From a virus (Duplodnaviria; Caudoviricetes): a stretch of DNA of 64,000 nucleotides. Below the pieces are notes generated by a model, which saw only the letters and a program-made list of their open reading frames with translations, made no database searches and was not told the DNA's origin. Of this stretch, positions 747 to 62,336 are shown piece by piece (the first letter of the stretch is position 1; each line of letters begins with the position of its first letter). The stretch is from IMG/VR virus record IMGVR_UViG_3300008267_000012; one strand, 5' to 3'. Both the position numbers and the translations under genes were made by a program.

Positions 747-1277
747 TTAAATATTGTTTATTAATGCTAATTCAAATTGTCTTGCATCAATTAGACTTTT
801 TGCTTTAATATAACGGTTATTCTTCCTATAATAAACATGTTTGTGTAAATCTTTATTTTTAACGGCTTTAACAACTTTGTTAAACCCTAAACAAAAACTT
901 GCATGTGCATGAGCAAGTTTCCAATTGTATGAGCTATCTTTGAATTTATTATTTATTTCTGTTAACGCTTTATTGAAATCTTCTTTTAAAATTTCCATTG
1001 CTTTTGTTGTATCAACAGATTTAAATCTTTCTCCTTTCAATAATCTATGCCCATACCCAATAGTTTTAAAACCTGCTGGGCATCTATAAACTTTTGGCAT
1101 AAACTTTTCTCTTTCTTTTAATTCATTTATACATTCATTATAAACATTCAAACTATCGTTTTCTTCAAATGTATGAGAAATGTTTTGTTTGTTTCTTTTG
1201 TGAAATTTATTGTTTTCAAATTTAAAGAACAATAAAACCATTAGTATGGTACATACTTTATTAAATGTTGTTTTCAT
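747..1277 (-). CDS. GH24 phage lysozyme (endolysin) with N-terminal hydrophobic segment
   Basis: E57-x8-C66-x5-T72 triad (EKFMPKVYRCPAGFKTIGYGH); hydrophobic aa 8-20. Confidence 0.88.
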   Translation of the reverse strand: MKTTFNKVCTILMVLLFFKFENNKFHKRNKQNISHTFEENDSLNVYNECINELKEREKFMPKVYRCPAGFKTIGYGHRLLKGERFKSVDTTKAMEILKEDFNKALTEINNKFKDSSYNWKLAHAHASFCLGFNKVVKAVKNKDLHKHVYYRKNNRYIKAKSLIDARQFELALINNI

Positions 1278-1369: not shown

Positions 1370-4300
1370 TTATTTAACAAAAAAGTAAGCAGTTTTTGTT
1401 TTAACTGTCTGAGTACAACTTGTACATACTACATCTACTCTATACCATCTGTTTGAATAGGAAGGTAATGGACTTGCAACTCTCAAAAATGTGCTTGAGT
1501 TAAGTTCAGATGTAGTAAAAGTGATATTACCATTACTTTGACCTGCGTTTCTAACAGAACCCCCTGTTGGTTGCCAAATAAGTTTTGAAGCCTGTGTTTG
1601 CGATAATGTACTATCACTTGCTAAAAATCCATTAGCTGAATTTCCATTATAGAATAAAACTTTATAACCTGTACTTGAACAACTATTACTTAAATTAAAA
1701 GAGTAAGTAAAATTTGTTCTTCTTCTATCAATTGCTGTAATTGATGTTGTAGTACAAGCTGATGTTGGTACTGATGGGTTATAATTTACAATAACATTAA
1801 TAGGTAATGAGATTGAATTATATATTCCATTCTTTAATACTCCTGTATAACTATATGTGCCATTTGCTTTGTTTGTGACTGATAGTGTTGTTGTAAATGA
1901 ATTATTATTTGTTAATGGTGAAGATTTAACAATTGTACTTCCTTCTTTAATTTCATAAGATGTTGCATTATGATTTGAAGGTGTATTAAATGTAATTATA
2001 TAATTTTTATCTAAATTAACTAAAGTATCAGCAGTAACAGTTGGTACTGCTAAACTGATTACAGGATTATAATTTACAGCTACAGCTACAGAATTTGATG
2101 TAGTATTGTTTGGTGTCTTAGACGAATTTAAAAGTTTAGCAGTATGTGTATATGTTCCGTTTGAAATACCCAATCTGCTAAGAGTTATTGTTATTGAATT
2201 ATTATTAGCTAAATTACCTGAACCAATAACAGTAGTTCCTTGTAATATCTGATACGATGTTGCATTATGGTTCTGTGGGATTGCAAAGGATAATACATAA
2301 TTTGGGTCTTTATTTGATGTACTATCAACAGATAATGTTCCTGTTAAAATTGGGGTTACATTAAAAGACACATTTACTGTAACAGGACTTGAGGTTTTAG
2401 TTTGACTTCCATTACTTAAATTAGCTGTGTGAGTATATGTTCCATTAGTTACATTTGTTCTAGCTGTTGTAATAGTTGTGGCATTGTTATTTGCTAAATT
2501 ACCTGAAGCGATTACAGTTGTTCCTTGCAAAACTTGATATGATGTAGCGTTATGTGTTGATGGTATTGTTGTAGTTAGTGTATAGTTCTTATCTAAGTTA
2601 TTTGCACTATCTACACTAATTGTTGGGGTTTTTAATGCTGTTGGTGAGTCTGTACCATCAACAGTAATTGTATTAATAAAAAGATTATTGGATGGTATTG
2701 TTGTTAATTGTGTTGGTTTAAATACAAAAGCAAATTGAACATTTTTACATGTATCATAAGAAGATAAATCAACTGTTTCAGTTCTCCAATCTGAAGATGT
2801 AATAGAAGCAGGTTTATATGGTGATGTTGATGTGTAAAGATTAGTAACAGTTCTTAAAGTAGTACCACCCTTTTTATAGATTCTAACAGGTATTGTTTTA
2901 CCACTAAAATATGCTAATATCTCTAAACTATCGTATCTTGGTGATGAACTAAGACCTAAAGCATGAGCAACTTTAAAATTAAGATTCAAGCTACTTAAAT
3001 TATTATTTGTATAAACAGGAGAAAATGCTGTGTCTTGTAAAAATGCTGGGCTAGGATTATTAGTGCTTGTTATTGCAAATGTATGATAAAGCGCATTATA
3101 TGTTGTTAATAAAAAAGACTTACTATTTTGCCAAAAACTTTGAACTAATGCACCATTATAGTTTGTGTTTAAATCTGATAATGATTGTGGACCTTTAAAT
3201 TCCCAATTGGGATAATTTGCTGCTGTCCAAGTTGAAAATGTTTCTGTTTGTGGAATATTAAGTAATGGATTTACTCTTATTCTAATTTTAGCGGCATTTG
3301 ATAAGCAACCAGTTTGTGTTGCTGTTACTGAATATAAACCTGAATTAGAACTTGTAAGAGAATTTATATTTGGACTTTGAGAACTTGATGTAAAACTATT
3401 TGGTCCTGTCCAACTATATGTTGCACCACCTACTGTTGTTGTTCTTAATGGTAATATTTCACCTGCTGAATAAAATCTTCTTGGTGTTGTTACTTTAATA
3501 TATGGTATAGCGTTTCCAGGTAAACAAGATGAACCTGTTCTTATTTTGTCACCAGGTAATGGACCGAATCCTTTCATTAAATCAACACCAGTAGATGCTG
3601 TATGACAATAACTCATTATTGTACCTTTTATAGGTTTTACTAATGTACCACAACCACCTTCTCCTGCATAACAAGAGTCAATTCTACCTGTTCCACCACC
3701 TGCTTTAGGCCAACCGCACCAATGTGTATGTTTTGAACCAAAATTATGACCCATTTCGTGTGCTACAACGTATACAGACCATGAATATGTATTTATATTA
3801 TTATTAAAAGTATTATAAATATTGGAATAACCAAAACGGTTATTATAATATAAAGGATTACAAACAACATCAATCCAAGCTATTCCACCTAAAAACCCAA
3901 AATTTGTTCCTAACAAATGTCCAAGTTTTTGTGTTATATTCTGTCTTCTTGTTGTAAAATTATTTAAAATTGCTAATGATGATATTGGACTTATTGATGC
4001 ATATGGGTCAGGAGTTGTCCAAATATAAACTTGGTCAACATAAATTGATATACCTTCATTTTCATAAATTTGTTTTACTAGATTAAATAATGATGTGACT
4101 TTTGCGGTTGTATTTGCAACAGATAACCCATTCTCTTGGTACATTCTATAATCACACTCAACATATATACCTATTGTTTTACATCCTGAACCACCAACGG
4201 CCTCTCCTACTTCAGGTGTAGGTGTGTTACCAATTTGTGGTTGTACTTCTCTTAACCATTGATTCTCATCCACATTTAAAGGTGGGTCAGGTGTAGTACA

Positions 4301-4819
4301 ATCAAAACTAGGTTTAGAAGAACCCATTTCTGATTCAGGTAGTGCTACATATGTATCTTTTGCAGTTCTTAGTTTACCAATGTTAATATTGTCATTTCCA
4401 TCTCCTTGTAATAAACCACCAATATCATCTTTAGTAACAGTTAAACCACCAAAGCTTCTTTCATTTTTTCTATCAAAAACTTTATAACTTACACCTGTAA
4501 AATCTTTTCCTGAAAATTCTCTACCATCAGATGTTGTAACTTTAAAAGTTGATGTTACAACCTGATGTTTTTTAAATACATAAGATTTTATTTTACCATT
4601 TGGTCTTGGTAAATCAAAAACAAATTCTTCAGGTTCACTTCTATATAAAGTTGATAATGTTGTTCTATCTAAAGATAATTGTAAACCTTTTTGTTTAATC
4701 TTACTACTTTTAGGTGCATTGGGGAAGTTCCTCAAAAAATTAAATCTTTGAGGTTCTTCCTGTGCATATGATTTTAAAGTTAATAATGTTAATAATAAAT
4801 ACAGATATATTTTTTTCAT
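1370..4819 (-). CDS. Secreted M12B/reprolysin-like zinc metalloprotease with pro-region, Ig-like repeats and shared 4-Cys C-terminal domain
   Basis: Signal peptide MKKIYLYLLLTLLTLKSYA|Q; HEMGHNFGSKH (HExxHxxGxxH, nt 3728-3760); Met-turn-like TIMSYC; three VDSxxNxD repeats. Confidence 0.88.
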   Translation of the reverse strand: MKKIYLYLLLTLLTLKSYAQEEPQRFNFLRNFPNAPKSSKIKQKGLQLSLDRTTLSTLYRSEPEEFVFDLPRPNGKIKSYVFKKHQVVTSTFKVTTSDGREFSGKDFTGVSYKVFDRKNERSFGGLTVTKDDIGGLLQGDGNDNINIGKLRTAKDTYVALPESEMGSSKPSFDCTTPDPPLNVDENQWLREVQPQIGNTPTPEVGEAVGGSGCKTIGIYVECDYRMYQENGLSVANTTAKVTSLFNLVKQIYENEGISIYVDQVYIWTTPDPYASISPISSLAILNNFTTRRQNITQKLGHLLGTNFGFLGGIAWIDVVCNPLYYNNRFGYSNIYNTFNNNINTYSWSVYVVAHEMGHNFGSKHTHWCGWPKAGGGTGRIDSCYAGEGGCGTLVKPIKGTIMSYCHTASTGVDLMKGFGPLPGDKIRTGSSCLPGNAIPYIKVTTPRRFYSAGEILPLRTTTVGGATYSWTGPNSFTSSSQSPNINSLTSSNSGLYSVTATQTGCLSNAAKIRIRVNPLLNIPQTETFSTWTAANYPNWEFKGPQSLSDLNTNYNGALVQSFWQNSKSFLLTTYNALYHTFAITSTNNPSPAFLQDTAFSPVYTNNNLSSLNLNFKVAHALGLSSSPRYDSLEILAYFSGKTIPVRIYKKGGTTLRTVTNLYTSTSPYKPASITSSDWRTETVDLSSYDTCKNVQFAFVFKPTQLTTIPSNNLFINTITVDGTDSPTALKTPTISVDSANNLDKNYTLTTTIPSTHNATSYQVLQGTTVIASGNLANNNATTITTARTNVTNGTYTHTANLSNGSQTKTSSPVTVNVSFNVTPILTGTLSVDSTSNKDPNYVLSFAIPQNHNATSYQILQGTTVIGSGNLANNNSITITLSRLGISNGTYTHTAKLLNSSKTPNNTTSNSVAVAVNYNPVISLAVPTVTADTLVNLDKNYIITFNTPSNHNATSYEIKEGSTIVKSSPLTNNNSFTTTLSVTNKANGTYSYTGVLKNGIYNSISLPINVIVNYNPSVPTSACTTTSITAIDRRRTNFTYSFNLSNSCSSTGYKVLFYNGNSANGFLASDSTLSQTQASKLIWQPTGGSVRNAGQSNGNITFTTSELNSSTFLRVASPLPSYSNRWYRVDVVCTSCTQTVKTKTAYFFVK

Positions 4820-4823
4820 ATAA

Positions 4824-7244
4824 TTAATTTGTTACATAGAAATAAGCGACTCTCTTTTTGTTTGTTTGAGAACAAGTAGTACAAACTATTTCAACTTTAT
4901 ACCATCTATTTCCAAGAACAGGTAATGGACTTGCAACTCTGTTAAATACTTTAGAAGTAAGTTCAGCATTTGTGAATTTTATATTTCCATTTGGAAATCC
5001 AACATTTCTAGGGCCACCACCTTCAGGTTTCCAAGTTAATCTATTTATTTGTGTTTGTGTTAGACTTGAATTGCTTGCTGAAACTCCTGTTACATTTTGT
5101 CCACTATAAAATAATGCTTTATAACTTGTTGTAGGACAATTTGGGTTTAAAGTAAATGAATATCTAAAACTACTTTTACTAGTATTTGGTGATGTAAGTG
5201 TACTAGTTGTACAAGCTTTAGCATCAACAACAGGTGCAGGAACATAAGTACTTGTAAAATTTATATTACTTTTTACAATTTGTGTTGTCTTATTAAATAC
5301 TCTAACAGAATATGTATATGTACCAGCTGTCTTGTTTTTAAATTTTAAACTAGTAGATGTTCTATTTTCTGGATTTAATAATCCCGAACCTATTAATCTA
5401 CCATTTTCACTAACTTCATATTGTGTTGCTTTATGTCTAGTTGGTAACGGTATTGTTAATGTATATGTACCTGTAGATGGTGAAGGATTATTAATAACAG
5501 GATTAAAATCTGTTATTGGGGTTGTAAATGTATCAACTAATACAGGTAATGTATCTGTACTAACCAAATTTAATCTGTTTTTATCAAAAATACTGAAAAT
5601 ACCATCTTGTGTATTACCTATTGATACTGTATGTTTATGAATACCATTGCTTGCTCTCCTTATAGTATATTCAATCATTTTAAAACCGCCTACAATATCT
5701 GATATTACTAATTGTGTATCTGATTGTGATTCTAAAAAAATACTGTTTTTAATTAATTTTTTACCATCATAAAATAATATTACATCACTATTATGGTCTG
5801 GTGGTAAAAATACTCTTAATTTATATGTCCTATCTTTATTTCTTGTTGAGTCAACATCAAGTCTTGGAACTCCTACAGGTGGATACGGAAAATCTGTGTA
5901 CACCGTTACATTTTGATAACCATCTTTAATATATCCATTTTTTAAAAGTAATTTAACACCATAAATAACTTTACCATTAAGTGTACTATCTCTCATTATA
6001 GTTACTGTTGTATCATTATATTCTATACGAGTAGGATTGTATGTTATACTATCATAAATAATACTATCTAATTTTATCGTTTCTATAAGTATATCGGCAG
6101 ATGATGTTTTTGCATATACAAATGCTAAAGATGAATTGTGATTATTTGGTATATTTACTGTTAAAGTATGTGTTCTATCATAATTATGTACGCTATCAAC
6201 TGTTATTGAAGGTGGGCTTTGAGGGTCTAAGGTGTCAATCATATAGTTAATAGCAAATTTATCTATTATTGTCAGACTTGAGTTACTAACTCTATAATTT
6301 ATCCCAGGAAAAGGCTTCAATATTATCATAACTTTTATCGTATTAGCTGTATCATATGGACTTAAATCAAAACTAAACCTTTTCCAATCGTATGATTTAT
6401 TTGATGTTGGGTAACGAAGTCTAGTTGTATCTAAATATTCACTAGTACTTAACTGTAACCCACCTCTTTTCCATAATTCAACAGGTGTTTGATTATTTCC
6501 AATTAAAGCTTTTACAATCAAAGTATCATACTCACTATCTGTAGAATCTGCTAAATAATGGACATAATTAAAATGAAGAGTTAATTTTCTATCATTACTT
6601 GATGTGTCAGGTATTGAAAAAACATTAGATATTATACTATCAGGATATGAATATATTGATGTGTCAGGAGAGTGATAAACAGCATTGTATGGTAAACCAC
6701 CATCAAGATAATATCTTAAACTATTCCAAAGACTTTTAATATTTTTACCTGCTAAAACAGAACTATCACTAGGTCTATAAACACCTTTAAATTCCCAATT
6801 AGGATAGTTACCATTATGTTCCATTTCTTCAAAACTTTCATAAAATGGAACACTCAAACCTGATGTTACTGTAATATGTATTGAATCAAGTGTTGTTGGG
6901 CAACCACTTTGTCTAAATCTAACATAATACCATCCTGAATCTGCTAATGTTAAATTATTTCTTACAGAAAAAGTATTTTCTTCAACACCAAAATCACCAG
7001 CAAAATCTTCTAATGATGTTGTATCTCCATTTGGATATATAAAGTTATAATACAAAAGATTTAGACCATCGGTTGAACCTTCACTAACAAATCTAAATAC
7101 TGATAATGTTAAATTAGAACCAACAGGGTATGAAGTTTGTGTTGTTACAATAGAAGGTTGAGAACAAAATGTCTCTAATTGTCCAAAAGATAAATTTGGT
7201 AACAAAAGTATTAAACTTGTGAGTATGTAAAGTATTTTTTTCAT
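4824..7244 (-). CDS. Secreted protein of the 4-Cys C-terminal domain family (no protease domain)
   Basis: Start moved to ATG 7244 (MKKILYILTSLILLLPNLSFG|Q), just after the upstream stop at 7252; shares the YPNWEFKG domain, VDS repeats and C-terminal domain with neighbours. Confidence 0.8.
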   Translation of the reverse strand: MKKILYILTSLILLLPNLSFGQLETFCSQPSIVTTQTSYPVGSNLTLSVFRFVSEGSTDGLNLLYYNFIYPNGDTTSLEDFAGDFGVEENTFSVRNNLTLADSGWYYVRFRQSGCPTTLDSIHITVTSGLSVPFYESFEEMEHNGNYPNWEFKGVYRPSDSSVLAGKNIKSLWNSLRYYLDGGLPYNAVYHSPDTSIYSYPDSIISNVFSIPDTSSNDRKLTLHFNYVHYLADSTDSEYDTLIVKALIGNNQTPVELWKRGGLQLSTSEYLDTTRLRYPTSNKSYDWKRFSFDLSPYDTANTIKVMIILKPFPGINYRVSNSSLTIIDKFAINYMIDTLDPQSPPSITVDSVHNYDRTHTLTVNIPNNHNSSLAFVYAKTSSADILIETIKLDSIIYDSITYNPTRIEYNDTTVTIMRDSTLNGKVIYGVKLLLKNGYIKDGYQNVTVYTDFPYPPVGVPRLDVDSTRNKDRTYKLRVFLPPDHNSDVILFYDGKKLIKNSIFLESQSDTQLVISDIVGGFKMIEYTIRRASNGIHKHTVSIGNTQDGIFSIFDKNRLNLVSTDTLPVLVDTFTTPITDFNPVINNPSPSTGTYTLTIPLPTRHKATQYEVSENGRLIGSGLLNPENRTSTSLKFKNKTAGTYTYSVRVFNKTTQIVKSNINFTSTYVPAPVVDAKACTTSTLTSPNTSKSSFRYSFTLNPNCPTTSYKALFYSGQNVTGVSASNSSLTQTQINRLTWKPEGGGPRNVGFPNGNIKFTNAELTSKVFNRVASPLPVLGNRWYKVEIVCTTCSQTNKKRVAYFYVTN

Positions 7245-7251
7245 AGTTTTA

Positions 7252-10200
7252 TTATTCATTAAAGTAGTAATATATTGATTTAATGTTTTGAGATGTAGAA
7301 CCGCTAGGACAAGCTGTACAAATAACATCAATTCTATACCAATTATTTAAAGTCGTTGGTTTAGGGGTTAATCTACTGAACATTTTATTTAGTCGTTCTT
7401 GTTGTGTAAATCTTATTGTTCCATCAGGAATCTCATCATTTTGGAATCTTGCAATTGGTGTAGGGTTTACTGTTAATTTTTTAACATAGAAATCTTCAAG
7501 ATATTCATTATTTGCATAAATTGTAGTTGCGACTTCATTACCATTACTATCAACACTAGTTGATGTTGAATTTTCTAATTTATATAATAAAACTCTATAT
7601 TTCGTTAAAGGACAAGAGGATAATAAATCAAAATTTAAAATATCTGTAAATGGTTCTATATTAAAATTATTAAGTGGAATACATGGTCTAGGATTTAATT
7701 TAACTTGTACAAAATTTGAATTTTGAAGAGGATATGAAACATTATTTGCAGCACTATATGCTCTTAAAATATATGAATACGCACCTGGGTTAGGTTTTTT
7801 ATCTTTTATTGAATCAACCTGTAAAAAACAATTATATTGTTGTGTAATCTGTACTCTTTTCTTGAAAACAAAAGGATTAGAAGTATTTGATTGATTTTTT
7901 TCATAAACATCCACGAAATCTATATTATTTAATTCATCAGGTTTAGGAGAATTAACTTCAATATATAAATTATAATTACCATAATTAAAATCAGATACAT
8001 CACTTAATTGTGGTATTTGTCCGTTTGGTGTTAAAGAATCTGAATTTCTAACATATAATTTAATAACTCCAAGAGGTACGGTACATGTTCTACAAATAGC
8101 TACACTAGTTGGTTCAGTAAATTCAACAGTAGGATTGTCAAGAATACTACTATATCTAAGACGATATAAATGTAAACCATCTGGTATATTTGTAAGATTG
8201 AAATTATAAGAACATGTTACGTTATAATTATAAAATTTAACATTAGTTGGCATTGCAGGTGTACAATTTGTATATGTTAAGGTTTGTCCTACATTTTGCC
8301 ATGTAGTATCAGATTCTCCTGTAGGTGTTGTTACAATTGTACCTTTTTGTAATACGAAATTCTGAATATTTGACTTAGCAAAAAATGTAGTTTTTAATGA
8401 AAGATTACCATCAAAATTAAAAGCACTATCAGGAAAAAATATTGGTTTTCTTTTAGGTAACCTTTTTTGATATGTTGTAACACTTGTTGTTATTGTTTGT
8501 GGTTCTGTTTCATTAAAAATATTACCATTTATATTTGCTGTATTTAGATTTTCTAAAACAGCCTCTAAATTATATTGATTTCCAGGTGTTGTTTGAAAAG
8601 ACCCTTCTGCAAGTATAGGACCTACAAATGTACCATCCGCTTTTTTAATTTCATTATCATCTATACTATATGTTTGTTCTGTAATACCTGTCTTTAATAA
8701 TTGTCTAGTATTATCTGGTCTAATTAAATTAATTGTATATCTATAAACATTATTTGGTATTGGTGAAGTTAATTTCCAATTACCTACTCTATCTTCAGGG
8801 TCAACATTTGGATTCAAAGGTATAGTATCATTTACAGCATTAGTAATTTCAAGTGTTGGGTCTCCTCCTTCACATAATTCTAATGGAATATTTCTTCCAC
8901 TTAATATTTCCATAGAACCTAAAACTAATGAACTAGCATATAAACTAGAAGAAATATTTTTATAAACAATATCAAATTGTAAACTTCTACAATCATCAAA
9001 ATTTCTTATATCTAATTTTATATCAGACCAATCAACTGTATTTTTATAATATCTATTATTGATAGGACTTCTTAAATATTCTGCCATAGGCTTATGGTAT
9101 ATTTTAATGGGTTCTATTTCTCCTGTGTATACATTTTTTGTATATCCAGGAAACCACGCTACTGTTCCTATTGGCATTGGTACGCTATCAAATTCAATAG
9201 GTGAGTTAAAATAATGGTTTAATACATAACCTGGTCTTATTAATCTTTGTGTATTAAAATAACCAGGTGTTAATTCACCATTATTAGTTAATGTATAATT
9301 ACCACTACCAGTGCCTTCAAATTGTTCCGCAGGGTCACCAAATCTATGAAATTTAAAATGAGTTTTATTTTTATATGATGACATATCTTTTAGATTTCCT
9401 TCAAAAACTAAACTTCTCCTTAATGTACCATTTTCAGTTACACCTCTTGCCCATATTTCTATCTTATCTGCACCAAAATTTTGACCTGCTCTTATATTAG
9501 CACTCCATCTCATGCTCTGCGCTCCTGTTGGTGCATAATAATAAACAATACCTGTATCGGGTACAGTAAAATATGAATAACTTAATTTAAACCTTAAATA
9601 GTTATTTTGATTGTCATCATTAAAATATAAAGGTGAACGTGCTGTATCTGATGTACCTTTTCTAAAATTTGTTAAACTAGCCCAATCAGGTAAGGATTTT
9701 AGATTTCCAAATTCATTATTAAGATAATCAGTAGCTTTATAATTACGCTTACGAGTTTCACCCCAATAATCATCTCTTATAGCCTGTTCATTATCAAATT
9801 GTACATCATTTGTTCCCCATAAATAACTTAAAGTCCAAAAATCATAAGTTTTATCAATTCTAGTTATTGGGTCATACCAATTAATATTAAAAGGAGGTGT
9901 TTGAATTATTGGTCTTAATCTATACCATTCACTACCTTCTGAAAAAATACCAGGAAAAACTCTATTTGCTCTAGTTCTATTTATCCATATATAATCTCTT
10001 TCATGAAACCAACTAGAAGAATGCGCCCATGCTTCTGGACCTTGTCCAAGCCATGTATTTGAAGCATCGTTTTGCCATGTTTCATTATACCCATAAGTAC
10101 TTCTAGCACCTAAATCAATAATTTTGTTAGTTGCAAATAATCTATCTCTACCATAAAAATATTTTATTGGTGACTTAGCATTTGATGGTAATCTTCCACC

Positions 10201-13200
10201 ACCTATATTTACAACACTAAATGTTTCATCATCATTATTTTCGTAAGTAATACCACTTGTAAAAACATTTGGTCTATAATATTCATAAATATTAAATGCC
10301 CAATTTTTCCAAGGTTTTTCTCTATAAGCATAGGCTTTATACATAGGTCTGTGTTCGTTTTTGAAAAATACACCACCACCATCATATGCCCCTAATCCAT
10401 AATTATATGTTTTATCAAATCTTGGGTCAGCTAATGCAGGGTCACCTACTGTATATTGTTCTTTTGCTTTTTCAGAACTTCTTATTGGGAAATAAAATAA
10501 TGTATTATAACTTGACCAATTATCTACATAAGTTGCATATTGGAATGGAGTATAATTAAAAAAATCAGGGCTAAATCCTTGTGCAAAACGAGAACTTACA
10601 TATGCATTTCTGTGAAAAACTGGGTGTTCATTATTTGCCACTCTTCCTGAGTAAAATGGGTCTAATGATGTTGATAAGTTACCCATACTCCATCCTGTAT
10701 TACTAAAACGAGATGGTGACCAAGGTTTCATACCTCTATTATAATATCCTGCTGTATACGTTGATGCTTCATTAAAAGCATTGCCTTCACCTGTTGACCA
10801 AGGACCAATAAATTCCCAATTCTTCATTCCAAAGGCTCTATTACCATATAAATTTTTAGTATTTAAATTAAATTGGTCATATTTAATTCGTGAAGTACCA
10901 CCTTTTAATGTAAAAGCACCAACTGAAAAACCAAATGGTGTATATGGTGTAAATGAAGCACCACTAGATGGACTAATTTTTTCTATAAAACTAAGCCTTA
11001 CAGGTGTTTCTTTTCTAGGATATACTCTAATATATTTTATAGCAGTATTTGAAATACAACCACTAGTATCTGTTAGTCTTAAAGATATTGGATAAATTCG
11101 CATTAAACTATCCTGATTACTATTATTAGGTATAAATATTCTAGCCCTAGATTTATTTCTAGCCCTAGGAATACCTGCTAATCCTGTAATTGGAAAATTT
11201 CCGTTTGCATTGGTTAAAGAAGCACTATTAAAACTCCATACATAACCAGTACTATCAAATCTAGAACCGCCAGGTCTATCCAAAGCTTCATAGCGTGATT
11301 GGACTTTCATTTGTTTTCCATACCAATTATCAAGATTTGTAAAATTATCTGATTCGTTAATTTGTTCTTCTGTTGTTAGACTATTATTTTTTATAACCAT
11401 TAATCCTTCATTTACAACATTATTTTCAATACCAGGATAATCGGCAGCTAAAACATTATTTCTTGCAAATATTGTATCACCTGCAAATTGATATTCAATG
11501 GCAGGTGATAATATATTTCTTTTATGCCATAAACTAACAGTTGCGTATGGATTAGGTCTTCCTCTAATCAAACCATTACCTCTAACACAATTTGGGTCTG
11601 TTGTACAATTACAATTATTTATATTTGGTCCATGTCCACTAATTTCTTCGCCCATCAGATTTAATCTAATTAAATCACCTGTTTTTTTATCAAATCCTTT
11701 TGAAAATGATACTAAATCAACAGGACACATATTATCTATTAATTGTAAATTCCACATTGAATATCTTGCATCCCAGTTTTGCCAACCAATTTTTAAATCA
11801 CCCTTTTTATCCCAATCATCTTCATCATAATTATTGTCTCCTGATGAATTTGTAGATTGTATATGTTTTCTATATATATAAGGCCATTGATAACCTACAA
11901 CTGGTGGTACTAAATCTTCTCTACTCCAACCGAAAGATGAACCTTGTGTTACCATTGTTGCTGCAATATATACTGCTAAAACAACCCATGTAACTGTCAT
12001 TGTTGTACCATTATGCCATAAGTTTTTATCATCGTCATTACCAAACCAATGTGCATAACCATTCCACCACCAATTTTCACCATTACCTCTTACTGTATGT
12101 TTAGATGCAAATTTTATTCTAAGTGGAACAAAAATACCTGCTGTTATTAAGGCATTACCTAAATTACCCCATACTAAATCCATAATATCAGTAGGTTCTG
12201 ATACGCCAGTTGCAAAACTAGGATACAAATAAGTTTGATACCAATGTCTAAGCCATGACGTATTTCCAGGTACATTTTTTTCAGATGGCGCTCTTTCACT
12301 TATATGCGGTGTACCTTCAGGACCTGAATTAGGAGAATAAGTATAATTATCAGCATCATAATTATTATTTCTTGCTAATGGTGCTAAAATTGTATTTCTA
12401 TTTGTTGTTGTCGTAAAATATCTTGGACCTAATTTTATTGCAATGTGATGAACTAACATCCAAACATTCCATTTGTCAATATTATATGCAAGATGATTTG
12501 AATTTCCAAATTGACCTGTTGTACCATAAAGTTCTTGAACATCTTGATAATTCCATTGTAAAACAGTATCAGTAGCTATTTCATCACCATCATATATGAT
12601 TTTATGCATAGGATATTGTTTGTAATTTATAGCATCACCATTTTTCCAATCTCCATTATTTGTTAATACATCAAAATATTTTGTATTGACATTTTCTAAA
12701 TCATAGGTATAATACCACATATTACCTAACAATGGTATTATTCCAGTTCTATCAGGTATAGTTTCAAATTTTGTATTATTAGGTAACCCATATATTTTAG
12801 TAGGATAAGAAATATATGGATGTGATACACCAATTGATTGTAGATGTGCGCCAACCTCATCAAATCCATTTACTTTAATATTTTGATATGAAACAGGCAT
12901 TTTTTTAGACAAATCATAATAATATACAAATGGGTCAATATTACCGAATAAAGTAGAATTATAACTTGATGGATTTGGTAAATTTAAAACATTATCATCT
13001 GATATATCTTTAGGTGCTACAAGCATTGGTAAATAATTGTTATGATTAAATGTGCCTGGAGGTATATTATAATTTCCCCAACGCATGTTCATACTCCAAC
13101 CAGTAAAATTATTTCCATTCCAATCATTGCTTTCGTTTGCAAAATTTTGACCACTATATTTTATTATATTTGCTCTTGCATTTTCATTCCTAATGAATTC

Positions 13201-14727
13201 TTTCCAACTCATAGCAGGATTTTCATTTGTCGTTGCAGGTGTAATATCACCAATATAAAACCAAAAACCATCATAAAAATCACTTAAACTTTGACCATAT
13301 GTTGGTCCATAAAGTCCAGGACCAATTTGTTGTCTTATTCTTATAAAAGGTGTTGTTGAAAAATAATTAGCATTTGTTAGTTTTTCAAATGTTTTACCAG
13401 TCCATCTATCATTATATAATGTAAAAGCAGTATCATTGTCAGCGACTGATTTTATATAATCATTAAAAACATCAAAAAGTCCATGTAAACCCCAACGTAC
13501 ACCTGATGTATTTGTTCTACCACATGACCAAAGATTTATATTACTATAATTACCACCATTATAAAAGTCATTATCATCTTTTGGTATATCTTTAAAAGCA
13601 CCATCATCCGCTTCACTATATGGTGATTGCCAACCTTTCCATTCTCTATTACCTCGTAAATATTGATTTTTAAAATGTTTAATATCATAAACCACTTCAC
13701 TAGTGGCATTATCTAAAGCACCTTGTTCGGGTGTAAAATCTTTTTGATAAGTTTCTAAAGGTTCTGTTTCAACAACTATTTTACCTAATTGAACATTAAT
13801 TCCTTCATTTTTAAAAATATTTACTACTTGTGTAAAATAATTTGTTAATTTTTGTGTAACTTGAGTTACCGCTGTTTGATTATAACTCTTTTTAATAGAA
13901 CCTTCTTTTAATGTTAATTTTCCATTTTCAATAATAAATGTTGGTGTTTGCCATTTTAAATACATTTCATAACTTATCATGTAATTTACTAAAATTACTT
14001 GACATCTAGTATATACTAAAGGTTCACAATCATGATTACTTGGTGGTGGGGCTGGGGCAGGTGCTAATAATTCATCATTTTTAAATTGTTTAAAAGTTTG
14101 TTGACTTTCTTTTTCGTTTTTAATATCAAAATCTTTTACTTCTTTCATTGCCGATATATCAGATTTTGTAAGTATTTTTTCATTTTTAATTTTATCAATC
14201 TTTGAAATAATATCTTTTATATTTTTAAAATCTTCTGTGCTTTTATCATTTATCTGATTTTTTGATATGTGTGTAATTTTAGTATTAAATTCTTTTTCTA
14301 TTTTAATTTCTTCACCATTAACTCGTAAATTAATATAAACATTATTTGGATATATTGTCATTGTACCCATATTAATATTATTAAAATCATTTATATTATA
14401 TGAAAGACCATTATATAATTTTGTGGTAAAAAAATGTCCACTAGTTGTATAAGTCATTCCAAGATTATCTTCTCCACGAATATCTAATCTTTCTAACTCA
14501 AACTTTTCGGTAGTGTTTAAATATGGAATTTCCATTTCAACAATAGCATTTTTAGGTTCTGAGCTAAAAATCTCCATTAAATTATCTTTATTAACAGTAA
14601 AATGTTTTTCAGGTGATTTCCTTTCAACAATTTTATAAGGTTTTCCTAATGAATTATTTATTGCACCTAAAGATTTGAATATTAATGTATTCAATAAAAT
14701 TAGTGAGAAAAGTAATATTTTTTTCAT
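7252..14727 (-). CDS. 2491-aa secreted, insertion-expanded paralogue of the M12B protease with a degenerate zinc motif
   Basis: Signal peptide; collinear motifs with the 1149-aa protein; HExxH position reads HHIAI; shared C-terminal domain. Confidence 0.75.
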   Translation of the reverse strand: MKKILLFSLILLNTLIFKSLGAINNSLGKPYKIVERKSPEKHFTVNKDNLMEIFSSEPKNAIVEMEIPYLNTTEKFELERLDIRGEDNLGMTYTTSGHFFTTKLYNGLSYNINDFNNINMGTMTIYPNNVYINLRVNGEEIKIEKEFNTKITHISKNQINDKSTEDFKNIKDIISKIDKIKNEKILTKSDISAMKEVKDFDIKNEKESQQTFKQFKNDELLAPAPAPPPSNHDCEPLVYTRCQVILVNYMISYEMYLKWQTPTFIIENGKLTLKEGSIKKSYNQTAVTQVTQKLTNYFTQVVNIFKNEGINVQLGKIVVETEPLETYQKDFTPEQGALDNATSEVVYDIKHFKNQYLRGNREWKGWQSPYSEADDGAFKDIPKDDNDFYNGGNYSNINLWSCGRTNTSGVRWGLHGLFDVFNDYIKSVADNDTAFTLYNDRWTGKTFEKLTNANYFSTTPFIRIRQQIGPGLYGPTYGQSLSDFYDGFWFYIGDITPATTNENPAMSWKEFIRNENARANIIKYSGQNFANESNDWNGNNFTGWSMNMRWGNYNIPPGTFNHNNYLPMLVAPKDISDDNVLNLPNPSSYNSTLFGNIDPFVYYYDLSKKMPVSYQNIKVNGFDEVGAHLQSIGVSHPYISYPTKIYGLPNNTKFETIPDRTGIIPLLGNMWYYTYDLENVNTKYFDVLTNNGDWKNGDAINYKQYPMHKIIYDGDEIATDTVLQWNYQDVQELYGTTGQFGNSNHLAYNIDKWNVWMLVHHIAIKLGPRYFTTTTNRNTILAPLARNNNYDADNYTYSPNSGPEGTPHISERAPSEKNVPGNTSWLRHWYQTYLYPSFATGVSEPTDIMDLVWGNLGNALITAGIFVPLRIKFASKHTVRGNGENWWWNGYAHWFGNDDDKNLWHNGTTMTVTWVVLAVYIAATMVTQGSSFGWSREDLVPPVVGYQWPYIYRKHIQSTNSSGDNNYDEDDWDKKGDLKIGWQNWDARYSMWNLQLIDNMCPVDLVSFSKGFDKKTGDLIRLNLMGEEISGHGPNINNCNCTTDPNCVRGNGLIRGRPNPYATVSLWHKRNILSPAIEYQFAGDTIFARNNVLAADYPGIENNVVNEGLMVIKNNSLTTEEQINESDNFTNLDNWYGKQMKVQSRYEALDRPGGSRFDSTGYVWSFNSASLTNANGNFPITGLAGIPRARNKSRARIFIPNNSNQDSLMRIYPISLRLTDTSGCISNTAIKYIRVYPRKETPVRLSFIEKISPSSGASFTPYTPFGFSVGAFTLKGGTSRIKYDQFNLNTKNLYGNRAFGMKNWEFIGPWSTGEGNAFNEASTYTAGYYNRGMKPWSPSRFSNTGWSMGNLSTSLDPFYSGRVANNEHPVFHRNAYVSSRFAQGFSPDFFNYTPFQYATYVDNWSSYNTLFYFPIRSSEKAKEQYTVGDPALADPRFDKTYNYGLGAYDGGGVFFKNEHRPMYKAYAYREKPWKNWAFNIYEYYRPNVFTSGITYENNDDETFSVVNIGGGRLPSNAKSPIKYFYGRDRLFATNKIIDLGARSTYGYNETWQNDASNTWLGQGPEAWAHSSSWFHERDYIWINRTRANRVFPGIFSEGSEWYRLRPIIQTPPFNINWYDPITRIDKTYDFWTLSYLWGTNDVQFDNEQAIRDDYWGETRKRNYKATDYLNNEFGNLKSLPDWASLTNFRKGTSDTARSPLYFNDDNQNNYLRFKLSYSYFTVPDTGIVYYYAPTGAQSMRWSANIRAGQNFGADKIEIWARGVTENGTLRRSLVFEGNLKDMSSYKNKTHFKFHRFGDPAEQFEGTGSGNYTLTNNGELTPGYFNTQRLIRPGYVLNHYFNSPIEFDSVPMPIGTVAWFPGYTKNVYTGEIEPIKIYHKPMAEYLRSPINNRYYKNTVDWSDIKLDIRNFDDCRSLQFDIVYKNISSSLYASSLVLGSMEILSGRNIPLELCEGGDPTLEITNAVNDTIPLNPNVDPEDRVGNWKLTSPIPNNVYRYTINLIRPDNTRQLLKTGITEQTYSIDDNEIKKADGTFVGPILAEGSFQTTPGNQYNLEAVLENLNTANINGNIFNETEPQTITTSVTTYQKRLPKRKPIFFPDSAFNFDGNLSLKTTFFAKSNIQNFVLQKGTIVTTPTGESDTTWQNVGQTLTYTNCTPAMPTNVKFYNYNVTCSYNFNLTNIPDGLHLYRLRYSSILDNPTVEFTEPTSVAICRTCTVPLGVIKLYVRNSDSLTPNGQIPQLSDVSDFNYGNYNLYIEVNSPKPDELNNIDFVDVYEKNQSNTSNPFVFKKRVQITQQYNCFLQVDSIKDKKPNPGAYSYILRAYSAANNVSYPLQNSNFVQVKLNPRPCIPLNNFNIEPFTDILNFDLLSSCPLTKYRVLLYKLENSTSTSVDSNGNEVATTIYANNEYLEDFYVKKLTVNPTPIARFQNDEIPDGTIRFTQQERLNKMFSRLTPKPTTLNNWYRIDVICTACPSGSTSQNIKSIYYYFNE

Positions 14728-14740
14728 GTTTTTTTATTTT

Positions 14741-14747
14741 TAAATAG
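14741..14747 (-). promoter_or_regulatory. CTATTTA putative phage late promoter (one of 14 copies seen)
   Basis: Copies at 14741, 17139, 17949, 19012, 22986, 26694, 29834, 30712, 33121, 39394, 51168 (minus) and 23005, 24326, 57048 (plus), each 6-19 nt upstream of a start codon on the coding strand. Confidence 0.7.
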
Positions 14748-14749
14748 GT

Positions 14750-16006
14750 TTAATTTGTTACATATGTATAAATTGTTCTGATATTTGTTGGACTATTACA
14801 TCCTGCACATACGATGTCTATTCTATACCAACAGTTACCATATGTTAACTTAGGAGTTGCTTTTCTCCTAAAAAATCCTTGACTTACTTCAGTTTGTGTT
14901 AGTAAAATTCTTGTGCTTGTTGTTGTTTCAATTTCTGCATTTTTATATTGAACCTTTGCTAACGGTAGCGTTCCAACTTGTACTTGTGACAATGAAGGAT
15001 TTGATGCAAGTAATCCATTACCATCAATACATCTATAAAATCTTGCTTCCCAACCTGTTCTTGGACAGGATGTTAAGGTGTTAAATCTATATTCAAAATT
15101 TGCTTTTGTACTATTAATTACACTAAGTGCTGTTGTTGAGCATTGTTTTGCTGCAAATCTTACAGTTAATAAATCACTAAAATGTGTATTACAACTATCA
15201 TATACTTCAACTGATTTAATTTTATAATATTTTATACCTGTTTGAGGTACAGTTACGGTTGGTCTTGCCCATAATTTATCATTTCCAAAGTTACCCATAG
15301 GACCAGGGGCAGTAAATATATTATTTTGGAAATAATTAAAAGTAGTAAAAGGATATAATAATTGACCACTTGAAGTGCATTCCCATAATTCATACCTTCC
15401 AACATTATTTAATGATGATGCATATATTTGACCACTAGGTGGTGTAGGATTAAACCAATATGTAGAATTTGGTTTCCATTCACTATGAATATTAATTCTT
15501 GCTACTTTATCATAATTTACAGCACTATCAGCAGTTATTTTCATTGGTAACATAAATGTAGAATTATGTGATAATCCCAAAATATTATTTTCTGGTCCTT
15601 GCGGTGTAATTGCGTATTTATGATTTTGAAGTGTATCAACTACTAAAAAATAATAATATAATTTTACACTATGTAATTGATTAGTTCTATTAATTATAAC
15701 TGTGTCTGCTGATGTTGTAGATGGTAAGATACCATATATGGGATAATCATAAAATAATGTATCATTTATATTACCATCAGTACATAATTTAGTACCAATT
15801 AATACAATGTAGTAATATTTAAAACCGTGATTTTCTTTAAATATTGCTTTTAATTGATGCGTTCTATCTTTATTTGATGTTGAATCAACTGTAAAAATTA
15901 CATCTTCTGTAACATAAAATGGGTCAATTGTAGGAACTGCTTGTTGTGCAAATATTTTTACTGAAGTAAGTAAAAGTATTAGAAGTGTGTAAAGTATTTT
16001 TTTCAT
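14750..16006 (-). CDS. Secreted protein of the 4-Cys C-terminal domain family
   Basis: MKKILYTLLILLLTSVKIFA|Q; VDSTSNKD and ADSAVNYD repeats; WYRIDIVCAGC. Confidence 0.8.
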   Translation of the reverse strand: MKKILYTLLILLLTSVKIFAQQAVPTIDPFYVTEDVIFTVDSTSNKDRTHQLKAIFKENHGFKYYYIVLIGTKLCTDGNINDTLFYDYPIYGILPSTTSADTVIINRTNQLHSVKLYYYFLVVDTLQNHKYAITPQGPENNILGLSHNSTFMLPMKITADSAVNYDKVARINIHSEWKPNSTYWFNPTPPSGQIYASSLNNVGRYELWECTSSGQLLYPFTTFNYFQNNIFTAPGPMGNFGNDKLWARPTVTVPQTGIKYYKIKSVEVYDSCNTHFSDLLTVRFAAKQCSTTALSVINSTKANFEYRFNTLTSCPRTGWEARFYRCIDGNGLLASNPSLSQVQVGTLPLAKVQYKNAEIETTTSTRILLTQTEVSQGFFRRKATPKLTYGNCWYRIDIVCAGCNSPTNIRTIYTYVTN

Positions 16007-16010
16007 AATT

Positions 16011-17129
16011 TTAAAGGTATATATAAACGTATTTACTTATTAATTTATTAGGATATGGGCAAGTTGCACAAACGATATCTATTCTGTACCATCCATAATT
16101 TATTATTTTTGGTGATGCATCTCTTTCAAAATATCCTTGAATTATTTCTTGTTGTGTTAATGTTATCCTAGAACTTGTTAAAGTCTCAATATCTGTAACA
16201 TTCTTATATTGAACATTAGCGGTTTTTAAATTTGGTAAAATTGATTGAGATAAGTTTAAATTTTGAGCATCGTAATTATCTGTATCTAATAATCTATAAA
16301 ATCTTGCTTCATATGCTCTTGTCTGATTAGGACAATTTGAATTTAGAGTAAATCTATATCTAAATTTTGTTGTTTGGTCATTTAAAATACTTAAATTACT
16401 TGGGGCGCAAGATGGAACAACAGGTGGTGGATTAAATGTTACCGTAGTTACATTACTTAGAGCAAATTCACAAGTATCAAGCGTTGGAAATAAAAATGCT
16501 CTTCTTCTTAAAAATGCTCTGTAATAGTATGTTCCTGGTGGTTTTGTTATATTAAAATCAACTGTAGTTGGTGGATTCGTAGTGTATGTTGGTGTTTGTA
16601 ATATATTTGTAAAGGTTGAACTAGTTGCAGAGGTATATTCTCTTATAACTATTCTACCAACATTACTAACGGTTGGTAAGGTAACTCTTAATCTAGCTGT
16701 ATTATTATTATTTATAACAGTATCAACAGATAAAAAACTATTATTTAAAGTTTTTATTGGTTTATTATTTTGTTTTGTTATAATTTGTATTTGGTTTGCT
16801 GCATTATTTGTAGCAACTGCTATGTACAAATAAATACCATTACCAATTGTTGGCATAACATAAGAAAATGTGTCTGCTGATGTTGTGTTTACTGTTGGTT
16901 GTTGTAATAAATTATAACCTTGTTGTTGGTATGTACAAAGATTTGCATATTGTCCAATAATATTAAAAGATGTAATTCCATGATTTGGTTTTAAAATAAT
17001 CTTTATGGTATGTATTGTATCATAATTGATTGATGAATCTACCTGTATTGCCCAAGAAGAATTTGATGATTGGCTAAATCCTAAGAATGGAAAAAGGGTT
17101 AGGGTTAAAAATATTAAAAATTTTTTCAT
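16011..17129 (-). CDS. Secreted protein of the 4-Cys C-terminal domain family
   Basis: MKKFLIFLTLTLFPFLGFS|Q; VDSSINYD repeat; WYRIDIVCATC. Confidence 0.8.
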   Translation of the reverse strand: MKKFLIFLTLTLFPFLGFSQSSNSSWAIQVDSSINYDTIHTIKIILKPNHGITSFNIIGQYANLCTYQQQGYNLLQQPTVNTTSADTFSYVMPTIGNGIYLYIAVATNNAANQIQIITKQNNKPIKTLNNSFLSVDTVINNNNTARLRVTLPTVSNVGRIVIREYTSATSSTFTNILQTPTYTTNPPTTVDFNITKPPGTYYYRAFLRRRAFLFPTLDTCEFALSNVTTVTFNPPPVVPSCAPSNLSILNDQTTKFRYRFTLNSNCPNQTRAYEARFYRLLDTDNYDAQNLNLSQSILPNLKTANVQYKNVTDIETLTSSRITLTQQEIIQGYFERDASPKIINYGWYRIDIVCATCPYPNKLISKYVYIYL

Positions 17130-17157
17130 GTTTTTCTTTAAATAGGAAAAAAACCAC

Positions 17158-17185: not shown

Positions 17186-17377
17186 ATGACAAAAAATCAA
17201 ATCTATGGACTAGTGGCGGTGGTAGTGCTTGCGCTAGGTGGTGGTGGTTATTATTTTATGACCCCACAAAAAGAATGTTGCAAAAAAGAAGCTACATGTA
17301 ATGCAATGACAGATAGTTCTGCAACTGTTAGCGATTCTGCAAAAGTAGATACCGCAGCAGTAAAAACTACAAATTAA
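17186..17377 (+). CDS. Small single-pass membrane protein
   Basis: Likely start MTKNQIYGLVAVVVLALGGGGYYF; Cys-containing tail; followed by a terminator. Confidence 0.65.
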   Translation: MTKNQIYGLVAVVVLALGGGGYYFMTPQKECCKKEATCNAMTDSSATVSDSAKVDTAAVKTTN

Positions 17378-17400: not shown

Positions 17401-17429
17401 AACCCTTGAGAAATCAAGGGTTTTTTTAT
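17401..17429 (+). terminator. Rho-independent terminator
   Basis: AACCCTTGA-GAAA-TCAAGGGTT hairpin followed by a T-tract, between convergent genes. Confidence 0.85.
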
Positions 17430-26710: not shown

Positions 26711-27703
26711 TTAAATGTAAGGTTCATAAGGTGGATATGGTCTTCTCCATCTATTTAAAGGTCCAAGTTTTAAATTTAATTTAGCAAGACCAGCTCCAGC
26801 ATCTGGTGTATTCTCTGTTGTTGTATATGCATATTTTGTTGTTAATTTTGGATATGTTAAATTTATTGTGCTTGATGAACTATTTCCACCAAATTTTTGA
26901 TACATTGGTATATAAAACAATATATCAGATTGATTAATATTAGGTGTATCAGTTTCTCCTTCAAATAAATGCCAATAATTATCATATTTATACATTTTTT
27001 GTGCAAATAATTCAAATTCAGTAGGTGTCATAGTTGTTTTTGCCATACCAAAATTATGTACATTCATATTCATACCCATAGCTTGAATAGCACCACCGAA
27101 CCCACCTTTATAAAGAAATTTAATATTATTTAAATATATAAACGGTAAGCCGTATACGGCACTTGGATGAACTTTCTTATAATTATTCATATATGTTGTA
27201 AATGCACTTATTTGATTAAAATTTTTACTAGGTTCTTTATAAACCAATAAATTAAAACTACTTATACCTGTGCTTGCGGTTGATGGAACTATCCTAACAT
27301 TACTTTCTGTAACCCCTGGAATTAAATCTCTATAAGGTATTGAAGACCATGAACTACCACCTAAATTTAATGACATATATGGTGGTTGTATACCCGATGC
27401 TTCAAAAGTGACTGTAAAAGATGATTGAGTTATACTATAATAAGAAAGTCCATCTGTTGTAAAAAAATAACCTGCATTTAAATTAGTACCACCTGTACTA
27501 AGATTTAAAATATTAAATCTTGCCCAAAAAATAAAACCTTCTGTTTCAAGAATTTTTTCATTATTAAAACCATTTAAAAATATAGCGCATCTATCTATAA
27601 CATTTGCTCCGCTTATAGCATAAACACTACCAAAACCGTTTTTATAACCTACACCTTCTTGTGTTGCTCCTGAATTGTATAATAATCCTACAAAATTTTC
27701 CAT
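26711..27703 (-). CDS. Putative fibre-associated beta-sandwich (LamG-like) protein, paralogue of 27715-28761
   Basis: Shared YKxGFGS N-motif and GPxNxWxxPYPPYxPYI C-terminus. Confidence 0.55.
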   Translation of the reverse strand: MENFVGLLYNSGATQEGVGYKNGFGSVYAISGANVIDRCAIFLNGFNNEKILETEGFIFWARFNILNLSTGGTNLNAGYFFTTDGLSYYSITQSSFTVTFEASGIQPPYMSLNLGGSSWSSIPYRDLIPGVTESNVRIVPSTASTGISSFNLLVYKEPSKNFNQISAFTTYMNNYKKVHPSAVYGLPFIYLNNIKFLYKGGFGGAIQAMGMNMNVHNFGMAKTTMTPTEFELFAQKMYKYDNYWHLFEGETDTPNINQSDILFYIPMYQKFGGNSSSSTINLTYPKLTTKYAYTTTENTPDAGAGLAKLNLKLGPLNRWRRPYPPYEPYI

Positions 27704-27714
27704 AATATTAATTT

Positions 27715-28761
27715 TTAAATGTAAGGGTCATAAGGTGGATATGGTTTTTTCCATATGTTATATGGACCTTTATATACTGAAGCAGATTGTGTTGGTTGAT
27801 TTGCTTGATAATTTGTTGTACCTGTTGATACAAAATCTGCTATAGGTGATTGTAAATTTGCTGCGGATACATTACCTAAAACTAGTTCAATATAAAATTT
27901 TTTACTAGGATTATAATAATCTCTAATATCTTTTCCCTCTTTTAAATATAATGGAAAATAATAAACTGCATTAGTTGGATTAACACTATATGCTGTTGGT
28001 AATAAATGTATATAATTATCAACTCTATGTAATTCAGTAACTAAATTATCAATATATGTTGTTGTTAATCCTGTGTCAAGTTTAAAAACAGAATTATTAA
28101 ATACATACATTGGTACTGTTCTACTAAAAGGAAACGCAGTGCCAAAACTTCCACCAAAATAAATATCATTAAATGTAACTGATGATAATTGATTTAATGG
28201 TATTCTAGCAGTATTTCCATCATAAATAACACTTCCAGCATTTGTAAGTGTTTTAAGTTCACCATTCATATAAAATCTATATGAGGATGCTGCTGTAAAA
28301 GGACCTTCATTTTTATATAATGTAAAATTATATACTTTATTTCTATATATTTGATTAGTTGGAACTATAGCATTATAAGCTAGAATTATACCGCCCTGTC
28401 CTCCTTCATTAGCAATAAAGTTAAAATAAACATATCTTCCATTTTGAAAATTAAAGTTCATATGGAGTATATTTGTGATTGGTCCATCACCTCTATAAAC
28501 TACAGTAGGTGCATTAGTAACTCCACCATATATATCAGAACCAGTTACAGCTTCAGGTAATATTCTATATGTCCATATAAAAGGTTCATTTGCTAAAATT
28601 GTTTTACTTATACCACTAATTCTTGGTGTACGATTTTGATAAAATGTTTTTGCTGTATATGCACTATCTCCACCAACCCCTGCGAAAAGAAAACTTATAC
28701 TTCCAACTCTTAAAGCACTTCCAAAACCACTTTTATATTGTAATCCTAAATTATTTGGCAT
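27715..28761 (-). CDS. Putative fibre-associated LamG-like protein
   Basis: YRFYMNGE LamG-like strand; paralogous termini with 26711-27703. Confidence 0.55.
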   Translation of the reverse strand: MPNNLGLQYKSGFGSALRVGSISFLFAGVGGDSAYTAKTFYQNRTPRISGISKTILANEPFIWTYRILPEAVTGSDIYGGVTNAPTVVYRGDGPITNILHMNFNFQNGRYVYFNFIANEGGQGGIILAYNAIVPTNQIYRNKVYNFTLYKNEGPFTAASSYRFYMNGELKTLTNAGSVIYDGNTARIPLNQLSSVTFNDIYFGGSFGTAFPFSRTVPMYVFNNSVFKLDTGLTTTYIDNLVTELHRVDNYIHLLPTAYSVNPTNAVYYFPLYLKEGKDIRDYYNPSKKFYIELVLGNVSAANLQSPIADFVSTGTTNYQANQPTQSASVYKGPYNIWKKPYPPYDPYI

Positions 28762-28762
28762 A

Positions 28763-33112: not shown

Positions 33113-33127
33113 CTTAACTATAAATAG

Positions 33128-62310: not shown

Positions 62311-62336
62311 ATTTTTTTGTTTGACTAGTAATATTA

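Follow-up and report, generated by a model that had tools for sequence, protein, structure and literature searches.

The window analysed here, a stretch of 64,000 nucleotides, lies inside the 91-kb IMG/VR virus record IMGVR_UViG_3300008267_000012 (Caudoviricetes), which is itself part of a genome of about 240 kb. The virus is a giant freshwater phage, with Bacteroidota as its probable hosts. Five tandem genes on its minus strand encode proteins with a common C-terminal domain (CTD) of about 135 amino acids containing four conserved cysteines. As judged by sequence and profile comparison, the CTD is a family new to sequence libraries, restricted to phages and of known fold. The five proteins are paralogues of one scaffold whose protease head has relatives among secreted proteins of Bacteroidota. 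We read the CTD tentatively as a conserved base by which the proteins dock in the envelope of the host, a role to which we assign a probability of roughly 0.38.

A C-terminal domain shared by five tandem genes

Open reading frame (ORF) calls gave five genes coding for 372, 418, 2491, 806 and 1149 amino acids (genes 1 to 5, Table 1), with spacers of 4–22 nt. This agrees with the original prediction, which had been made from the letters and ORFs of the window. The length of 806 amino acids for gene 4 applies to the MKK start; its longest frame has a TTG start and extends to position 7331.

The prediction of a 4-Cys C-terminal domain common to all five proteins was supported by alignment and by searching the record in six frames. 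Queried with the 134-residue tail of the 418-residue protein, this search identified exactly five places, which are the five gene ends (E-values 7.7e-91 for the self match, 9.1e-33, 1.7e-22, 5.6e-21 and 2.3e-9). Sharing of the CTD is confirmed by these matches as far beyond chance. The sequence pattern starts with C-x24-C in four proteins or C-x22-C in the 2491-residue protein and continues with F.R...P...WY(R/K)(I/V)(D/E)(I/V).CxxC, much as first proposed (C-x~25-C, WY, CxxC). In the five proteins, 14–18 residues separate the CxxC from the stop codon (13–22 across the family), and an aromatic strand forms the extreme C-terminus.

Glu, Arg, Trp and Phe residues and the four cysteines are invariant across 23 CTD sequences, which suggests a specific conserved contact rather than a loose signal. 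When orthologues of either small protein are compared, identity is highest in the CTD (77% and 86%) and lowest in the N-terminal tip (53% and 70%). In the protease orthologues, identity is similar across all parts.

Distribution of the CTD

Scans of the five proteins against PHROGs, Pfam and NCBIfam gave no match over the CTD (E <= 0.1 for Pfam and NCBIfam), and the CTD profile did not match any PDB sequence at E <= 10. The domain, unrecognised in the original prediction, is thus absent from the sequence libraries, including those for the CTD types A, B and C of type IX secretion systems (T9SS). A profile search, a check put forward with that prediction, was carried out on 1.84 billion representative proteins. 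It returned 26 matches, 24 of them true, and in all 24 the CTD is at the extreme C-terminus.

The genomic context could be read for seven family members, the window included, and is phage-like in all seven. Five of these are syntenic contigs of about 230–245 kb, or fragments of such, which have one slot in common. The other two belong to more distant phages, where a single protease-CTD gene is located beside NAD-salvage and RNA-repair genes. A pattern scan of IMG/VR revealed no further CTD loci; the alignment was too diverse for pattern scans. No credible cellular CTD was found in a scan of genomes from 185,579 species; one 20-residue match in a metagenome-assembled genome (MAG) of Nitrincola was rejected as chance, as it lies outside any open frame. 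Taken as a whole, the tail of stalk repeats plus CTD has relatives in the phage family only. By these searches, the CTD is restricted to phages within the contexts read. Public sequencing runs in which most of the stretch is present come from two independent studies and are metagenomes of freshwater or lakes.

Five paralogues of one scaffold

The protein encoded by gene 5 matches Pfam Reprolysin_5 (E 6.7e-20) and four further Reprolysin models. Its zinc site HExxHxxGxxH is intact (HEMGHNFGSKH, residues 354–364), and by sequence its head belongs to the M12B reprolysin-like metzincins. The stalk consists of three repeats of about 95 residues with the pattern 'VDSxNxD...NHN'; the corresponding repeat of a distant orthologue passes Pfam ChitinaseA_N. 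The middle domain is called MAM-like on the basis of sub-threshold matches (E 0.011 for the region of a homologue).

Gene 4, devoid of propeptide and protease, aligns with gene 5 over some 700 residues that begin at the Ig domain (32% identity, E 9e-89). Genes 1 and 2, which are paralogous along their full length (E 1e-32), have only stalk and CTD behind the signal peptide. A full-length AlphaFold2 model of gene 1 (predicted local distance difference test score, pLDDT, 71) shows a signal helix and three beta domains. Gene 3 aligns with a hidden Markov model (HMM) of the head in co-linear fragments (residues 32–158, 284–321, 1222–1248 and 1894–1933). This match skips the zinc site, and as HExxH is absent from the protein, gene 3 probably encodes a pseudo-protease.

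By these alignments, the five genes form a nested deletion and insertion series of a single scaffold. The original prediction had suggested one tag on different cargoes. This did not hold, as the proteins are paralogues whose protease heads have a single origin, and the common tail is due to descent and not to repeated recruitment of a tag. The CTD is not recognisable as a copy of the family's own stalk repeat (hhalign probability 0.2%).

Residues 1–699 of gene 5 are co-linear with a protein, P0050, at 38% identity (E 5e-143). P0050 is encoded among housekeeping genes on a 41-kb contig, a chromosomal context, and its C-terminus is a Por_Secre_tail. This domain (PF18962) is also carried by most of the other head homologues from outside the phage family, including those of Saprospiraceae, Phaeodactylibacter and Bacteroidia MAGs. 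P0050, a Bacteroidota M12B secreted metallopeptidase with a T9SS CTD, corresponds to the phage protein in signal peptide, propeptide, HExxHxxGxxH domain, Ig and MAM-like domains, but differs throughout past residue ~700: its tail is made of Ig repeats and Por_Secre_tail, that of gene 5 of three stalk repeats and the 4-Cys CTD.

A maximum-likelihood tree computed from 47 heads places the ten phage heads that bear the CTD in a single clade (support 99/99), which lies within these homologues; the genomic context was checked for part of the rows taken as cellular. Their grouping suggests that capture happened once, and the alignments show the exchange of a T9SS tail for the phage-only stalk and CTD. 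The simplest history would be that one gene for a T9SS cargo was captured and given another tail, after which its copies were duplicated, truncated and inflated within phages. The cassette is a compact natural case of how one captured gene may give rise to an enzyme as well as to a pseudo-enzyme and to binding stalks with nothing else attached.

Export signals and glycosylation sequons

All five N-termini start with MKK(I/F), followed by a hydrophobic stretch and small residues at positions -3 and -1. Cleavage of the signal peptides is predicted at SYA|Q, SFG|Q, SLG|A, IFA|Q and GFS|Q. The common MKK-hydrophobic start and the Gln at +1 in four of the five, both noticed at first, are borne out. 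Complete orthologues on other contigs likewise have signal peptides with such cuts. The +1 Gln fits the 'Q-rule' described for substrates of Bacteroidota signal peptidase I (PMC5837995). Among about 88 ORFs of the 91-kb record, a hydrophobic N-terminus occurs only in the five cassette proteins, the adjacent endolysin and one AAA ATPase. From their sequences, the five proteins look Sec-exported. The N-terminal segment of the endolysin is of the signal or signal-arrest-release (SAR) type, and this enzyme is therefore probably exported as well, independently of a holin pore.

The Bacteroidota O-glycosylation sequon D(S/T)(A/I/L/V/M/T) is present 40 times in the five proteins compared with 15.6 expected, a 2.6-fold enrichment reached in none of 5000 shuffles. 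Part of this count comes from the conserved 'VDS(T/A/V)' that opens each stalk repeat, and paralogy inflates it somewhat. Neither the remaining ORFs of the record nor three head homologues from outside the phage family show such an enrichment.

Two further loci in the window concern membranes and glycans. The AAA ATPase (366 aa, 57608–58708, minus strand) has an N-terminal membrane anchor and a weak match to BCS1_N (E 0.003). ATPases of the Bcs1 type, which translocate proteins in the folded state through membranes, are unusual in phages. A run of glycan-type genes at 60064–63110 (minus strand) codes for a DXD glycosyltransferase, a GT47/RXYLT1-like protein and a methyltransferase. Further glycosyltransferase-like ORFs, judged from their N-termini, follow downstream in the record past the end of the window. 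A link between this gene run and glycosylation of the exported family is conceivable.

Predicted fold of the CTD

An AlphaFold2 model of the CTD, computed from a 23-sequence alignment, reached a pLDDT of 91.5 and a predicted template modelling score (pTM) of 0.85. It consists of a beta-sandwich with two short helices. Foldseek, which had been suggested together with structure prediction in the original prediction, found nothing at E <= 1e-3 with this model in the PDB, AFDB clusters and BFVD, apart from weak generic Ig/FN3 rows. ESM Atlas shape and feature searches also returned generic FN3/Ig rows, with TM scores of 0.5–0.62 and feature scores of at most 0.80, which is chance level.

Exhaustive comparison with VIA-align placed a tenascin FN3 domain (1tdq) on top (Z 9.7, root mean square deviation (rmsd) 2.5, 94 of 136 residues). 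Dozens of FN3 domains followed at Z 7.3–8.6. Matches to FN3 domains of tenascin and gp130 (Z 9.7, 8.6 and 8.6) cover 88–94 residues at an rmsd of 2.5–3.0. The CTD of PorU (6za2_B, residues 1054–1157) was aligned at Z 8.0 (rmsd 2.6, 95 residues) and is tied with many FN3 domains.

According to the model, the CTD is an FN3-like sandwich with about 40 inserted residues and not a new fold. Although it is of the same fold class as the tenascin domain, its identity to FN3 is only 6–12%, there is no Pfam fn3 match, and the inserted residues form two short helices and long loops. A further difference is the four conserved cysteines. By analogy with FN3 topology, the N-terminal Cys, the Cys of the B–C loop and the CxxC of the F–G loop probably meet at the N-terminal pole, which would allow either two disulfides or a Cys4 metal (Zn) site. 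By its own terms, the original prediction would be refuted by membership in a generic Ig/FN3 family or a T9SS CTD family. This applies in part: the fold is FN3-like, but no sequence family was matched. Two-copy co-folding of the CTD scored 0.00 and has no bearing on oligomerisation in either direction.

So generic a fold, together with the single origin of the family and the lack of any partner found, would suit a CTD that is a disulfide-stapled FN3-like cap with no part in targeting. The proteins would then be soluble periplasmic enzymes and pseudo-enzymes freed at lysis. Their cellular relatives are extracytoplasmic anyway and in need of oxidative folding. We hold this explanation to be unlikely, because two paralogues have only two stalk domains and the CTD behind their signal peptide and would then be left without any obvious activity, although sister phages conserve them. 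It also leaves unexplained why the CTD is the most conserved segment of these small proteins, with invariant charged and aromatic residues. If the CTD were merely a stable cap, the finding would still comprise a new phage-restricted FN3-like family and the unusual case of large proteins being exported late in infection by a giant lytic phage.

Relation to type IX secretion signals

The CTD might also be a private T9SS signal evolved by the phages, in effect a fourth CTD class. In that case, the T9SS of the host would carry the proteins over the outer membrane, and the dying cell would display or release them. The position of the CTD is suggestive: it is found exactly where the cellular homologue has a type A CTD, and like the known types A (PF18962/TIGR04183), B (TIGR04131/PF13585) and C (NF033708) it occupies the extreme C-terminus of Sec-exported multi-domain proteins. 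T9SS CTDs are beta-sandwiches as well, and the PorU match is in line with the Ig-like ones. A plurality of CTD classes is already known, three sequence-unrelated ones being accepted (PMC10202324). There is also a phage precedent in 'Cryophage', which is reported to encode T9SS type A cargo varying between phage variants (Bellas et al., 2020; PMC7468147).

A relation in sequence could not be detected for any of the three types. Comparison of the CTD profile by hhalign with a type A profile, for which the PF18962 tails of 20 protease-head homologues were used, gave a probability of 0.3%. A six-frame search of the 91-kb record with TIGR04183 (type A), TIGR04131 (type B) and NF033708 (type C, ChiA) gave nothing at E <= 1. 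The phage CTD exceeds the 70–100 residues usual for T9SS CTDs, contains four conserved cysteines including the CxxC, and is devoid of PNP, GxY and K-rich motifs. The match to PorU is no better than that to dozens of FN3 domains, and because the two are tied the fold does not separate FN3 from a T9SS-type CTD. As none of the seven contexts read contains a cellular carrier, the host machinery would have no native client of this type. A PorP/SprF-like partner (PF11751) was likewise not found at E <= 1 in the 91 kb available of the ~240-kb genome. Finally, the phages would have discarded a working type A CTD, unlike Cryophage. Both have a Bacteroidota-type host and exported multi-domain proteins that differ between near variants. 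The Cryophage proteins, however, are unrelated enzymes with canonical type A CTDs (PMC7468147), whereas here a single protease lineage carries a private one. We therefore consider a T9SS signal doubtful. LPXTG, PEP-CTERM and GlyGly-CTERM signals were rejected, as the C-termini are polar and aromatic beta-strands (YFFVK, YTYVTN) without a hydrophobic helix.

The CTD as a putative docking base

We favour docking in the host envelope because the CTD is strongly constrained, is the main content of two paralogues and has no cellular clients. It is kept in every paralogue, although two of them hold little else. The family would have arisen when a phage ancestor took up one Bacteroidota M12B metalloprotease gene of the T9SS-secreted kind and provided it with a new tail of ChiA_N/FN3-like stalk repeats and the FN3-like CTD. 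Multiplication in place would then have led to one active protease, one giant zinc-less pseudo-protease, one protein without protease, and two consisting of stalk and CTD.

Late in infection, the signal peptides would direct these proteins to the periplasm, where oxidative folding would take place and a Bacteroidota O-glycan would perhaps be added. With the CTD as common base, all family members may dock at one site of the host envelope, so that their variable N-terminal ends project outward and act. Possible targets are host surface or envelope proteins around the time of lysis, or neighbouring cells after release. From the features described above we infer that the proteins are exported and contain disulfides, and likewise their docking and what it would serve.

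Several points weigh against docking. A generic FN3 fold does not imply a function, and neither a ligand nor a phage-encoded partner of the CTD was found. Given the single origin of the family, the C-terminal position of the CTD and its presence in all members are not independent evidence for targeting. Moreover, most of these facts would also be explained if the CTD were a structural cap or a genuine T9SS signal.

The original prediction of an export or anchoring tag stands in part: Sec-type signals and a conserved CTD are present, but they belong to one scaffold by descent and not to different cargoes. A phage secretion, polymerisation or display system, as it had further proposed, did not find support, no phage-encoded partner having been identified. 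It is rather unlikely, in our estimate, that Bacteroidota phages have evolved a C-terminal sorting or anchoring domain of their own with which they present a rapidly changing set of proteins (active protease, pseudo-protease, bare stalks) on the infected cell, via the T9SS or a phage-specified receptor. If such phage-run display exists, it could be used in receptor destruction, superinfection exclusion or the preparation of neighbouring cells.

If the CTD does dock or sort proteins, phages would go beyond borrowing and rebuild secreted proteins of their hosts with a private address label. T9SS research would be provided with a further signal for testing or else with a clean negative control, because one and the same head occurs both with a T9SS CTD and lacking it.

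The cassette slot and its regulation

In the syntenic phages, the slot has a fixed order: an SNF2 helicase and, further along, a 168-aa protein, a 167–170-aa protein, a 63-aa membrane protein on the opposite strand, the cassette, lysozyme, a 229-aa protein, a ParB-like protein and adenylosuccinate synthetase. The flanking proteins show 75–94% identity between sister phages. The number of genes in the slot is 2, 2, 3, at least 4, or 5 per phage, and every slot gene carries the CTD. Varying gene content between conserved flanks is a typical trait of genes for interaction with the host. Turnover of the cassette seems to proceed by duplication. In the sister phage L010 (234-kb contig), two tandem CTD proteins of 1805 and 1811 aa (2581–13436) replace the small and giant genes; the 1811-aa protein has fragmentary matches to the head HMM and lacks HExxH.

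The cluster had been predicted to lie behind a late-type motif, and CTATTTA is indeed found ahead of its first gene, with a second copy ahead of gene 3 (Table 1). This heptamer is under-represented in the record (35 copies, about 57 expected). Nevertheless, 15 of the 35 copies are located on the coding strand 6–19 nt upstream of a start codon, where about 0.2 are expected, mostly ahead of large structural-type genes. The endolysin gene, which adjoins the cluster as predicted, and the divergent gene for the 63-aa protein have host-type TAnnTTTG boxes instead.

A late motif in common with structural-type genes would be consistent with binding of the CTD to the phage particle. Proteins folded in the periplasm would attach to capsids or tails at lysis with their variable tips outward. 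In T4 Hoc, Ig/FN3-like domains are strung together, the C-terminal base being conserved and the distal tip variable. The phage family resembles it by analogy in all three respects, including the polarity of tip and base. Hoc, however, has no signal peptide, and no sequence or specific structural match between the two was found. To our knowledge, Sec export is not a route for virion proteins of tailed phages, and a six-frame search revealed no CTD- or stalk-like segment in the large structural proteins of the record. Binding to the particle is thus quite improbable, and docking in the host envelope remains the role we prefer.

Table 1. Features of the cassette and its surroundings in the window.
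Feature	Position	Strand	Description
Endolysin	747-1277	-	Phage_lysozyme E 1.8e-9; PHROG endolysin; fixed downstream neighbour of the cassette
Gene 5, 1149 aa	1370-4819	-	Signal peptide, propeptide, M12B metzincin, Ig, MAM-like, three stalk repeats, CTD
CTD of gene 5	1373-1774	-	Shared C-terminal domain
Catalytic domain of gene 5	~3515-4204	-	M12B metzincin (by sequence)
Gene 4, 806 aa from MKK start	4824-7244	-	Ig, MAM-like, stalk repeats, CTD (coded 4827-5234)
Gene 3, 2491 aa	7252-14727	-	Scaffold swollen by insertions; CTD coded 7255-7698
CTATTTA, second copy	14741-14747	-	13 nt before ATG of gene 3
Gene 2, 418 aa	14750-16006	-	Signal peptide, two stalk domains, CTD (coded 14753-15160)
Gene 1, 372 aa	16011-17129	-	Signal peptide, two stalk beta-sandwich domains, CTD (coded 16014-16430)
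CTATTTA, late-type motif	17139-17145	-	9 nt before ATG of gene 1
63-aa single-pass membrane protein	17186-17377	+	Divergent; conserved CC-x5-C tail; TAnnTTTG box upstream
G+C-rich hairpin	17401-17422		Parts cassette unit from upstream 170-aa gene

The 63-aa membrane protein is found at the same edge of the cassette in L006, L007, L010 and L011 (62–76% identity) and has no Pfam match. It could be of the holin/antiholin type or a partner of the exported family. Its gene ends at the G+C-rich hairpin, which is followed by a T run on the plus strand.

Two other sets of tandem paralogues with similar N-termini are encoded on the minus strand of the window, at 26711–29818 (330, 348 and 351 aa) and 31700–34489 (470 and 453 aa). 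Neither set has a Pfam or PHROG match. Both are encoded just ahead of the very large genes of structural type and probably consist of baseplate or fibre proteins.

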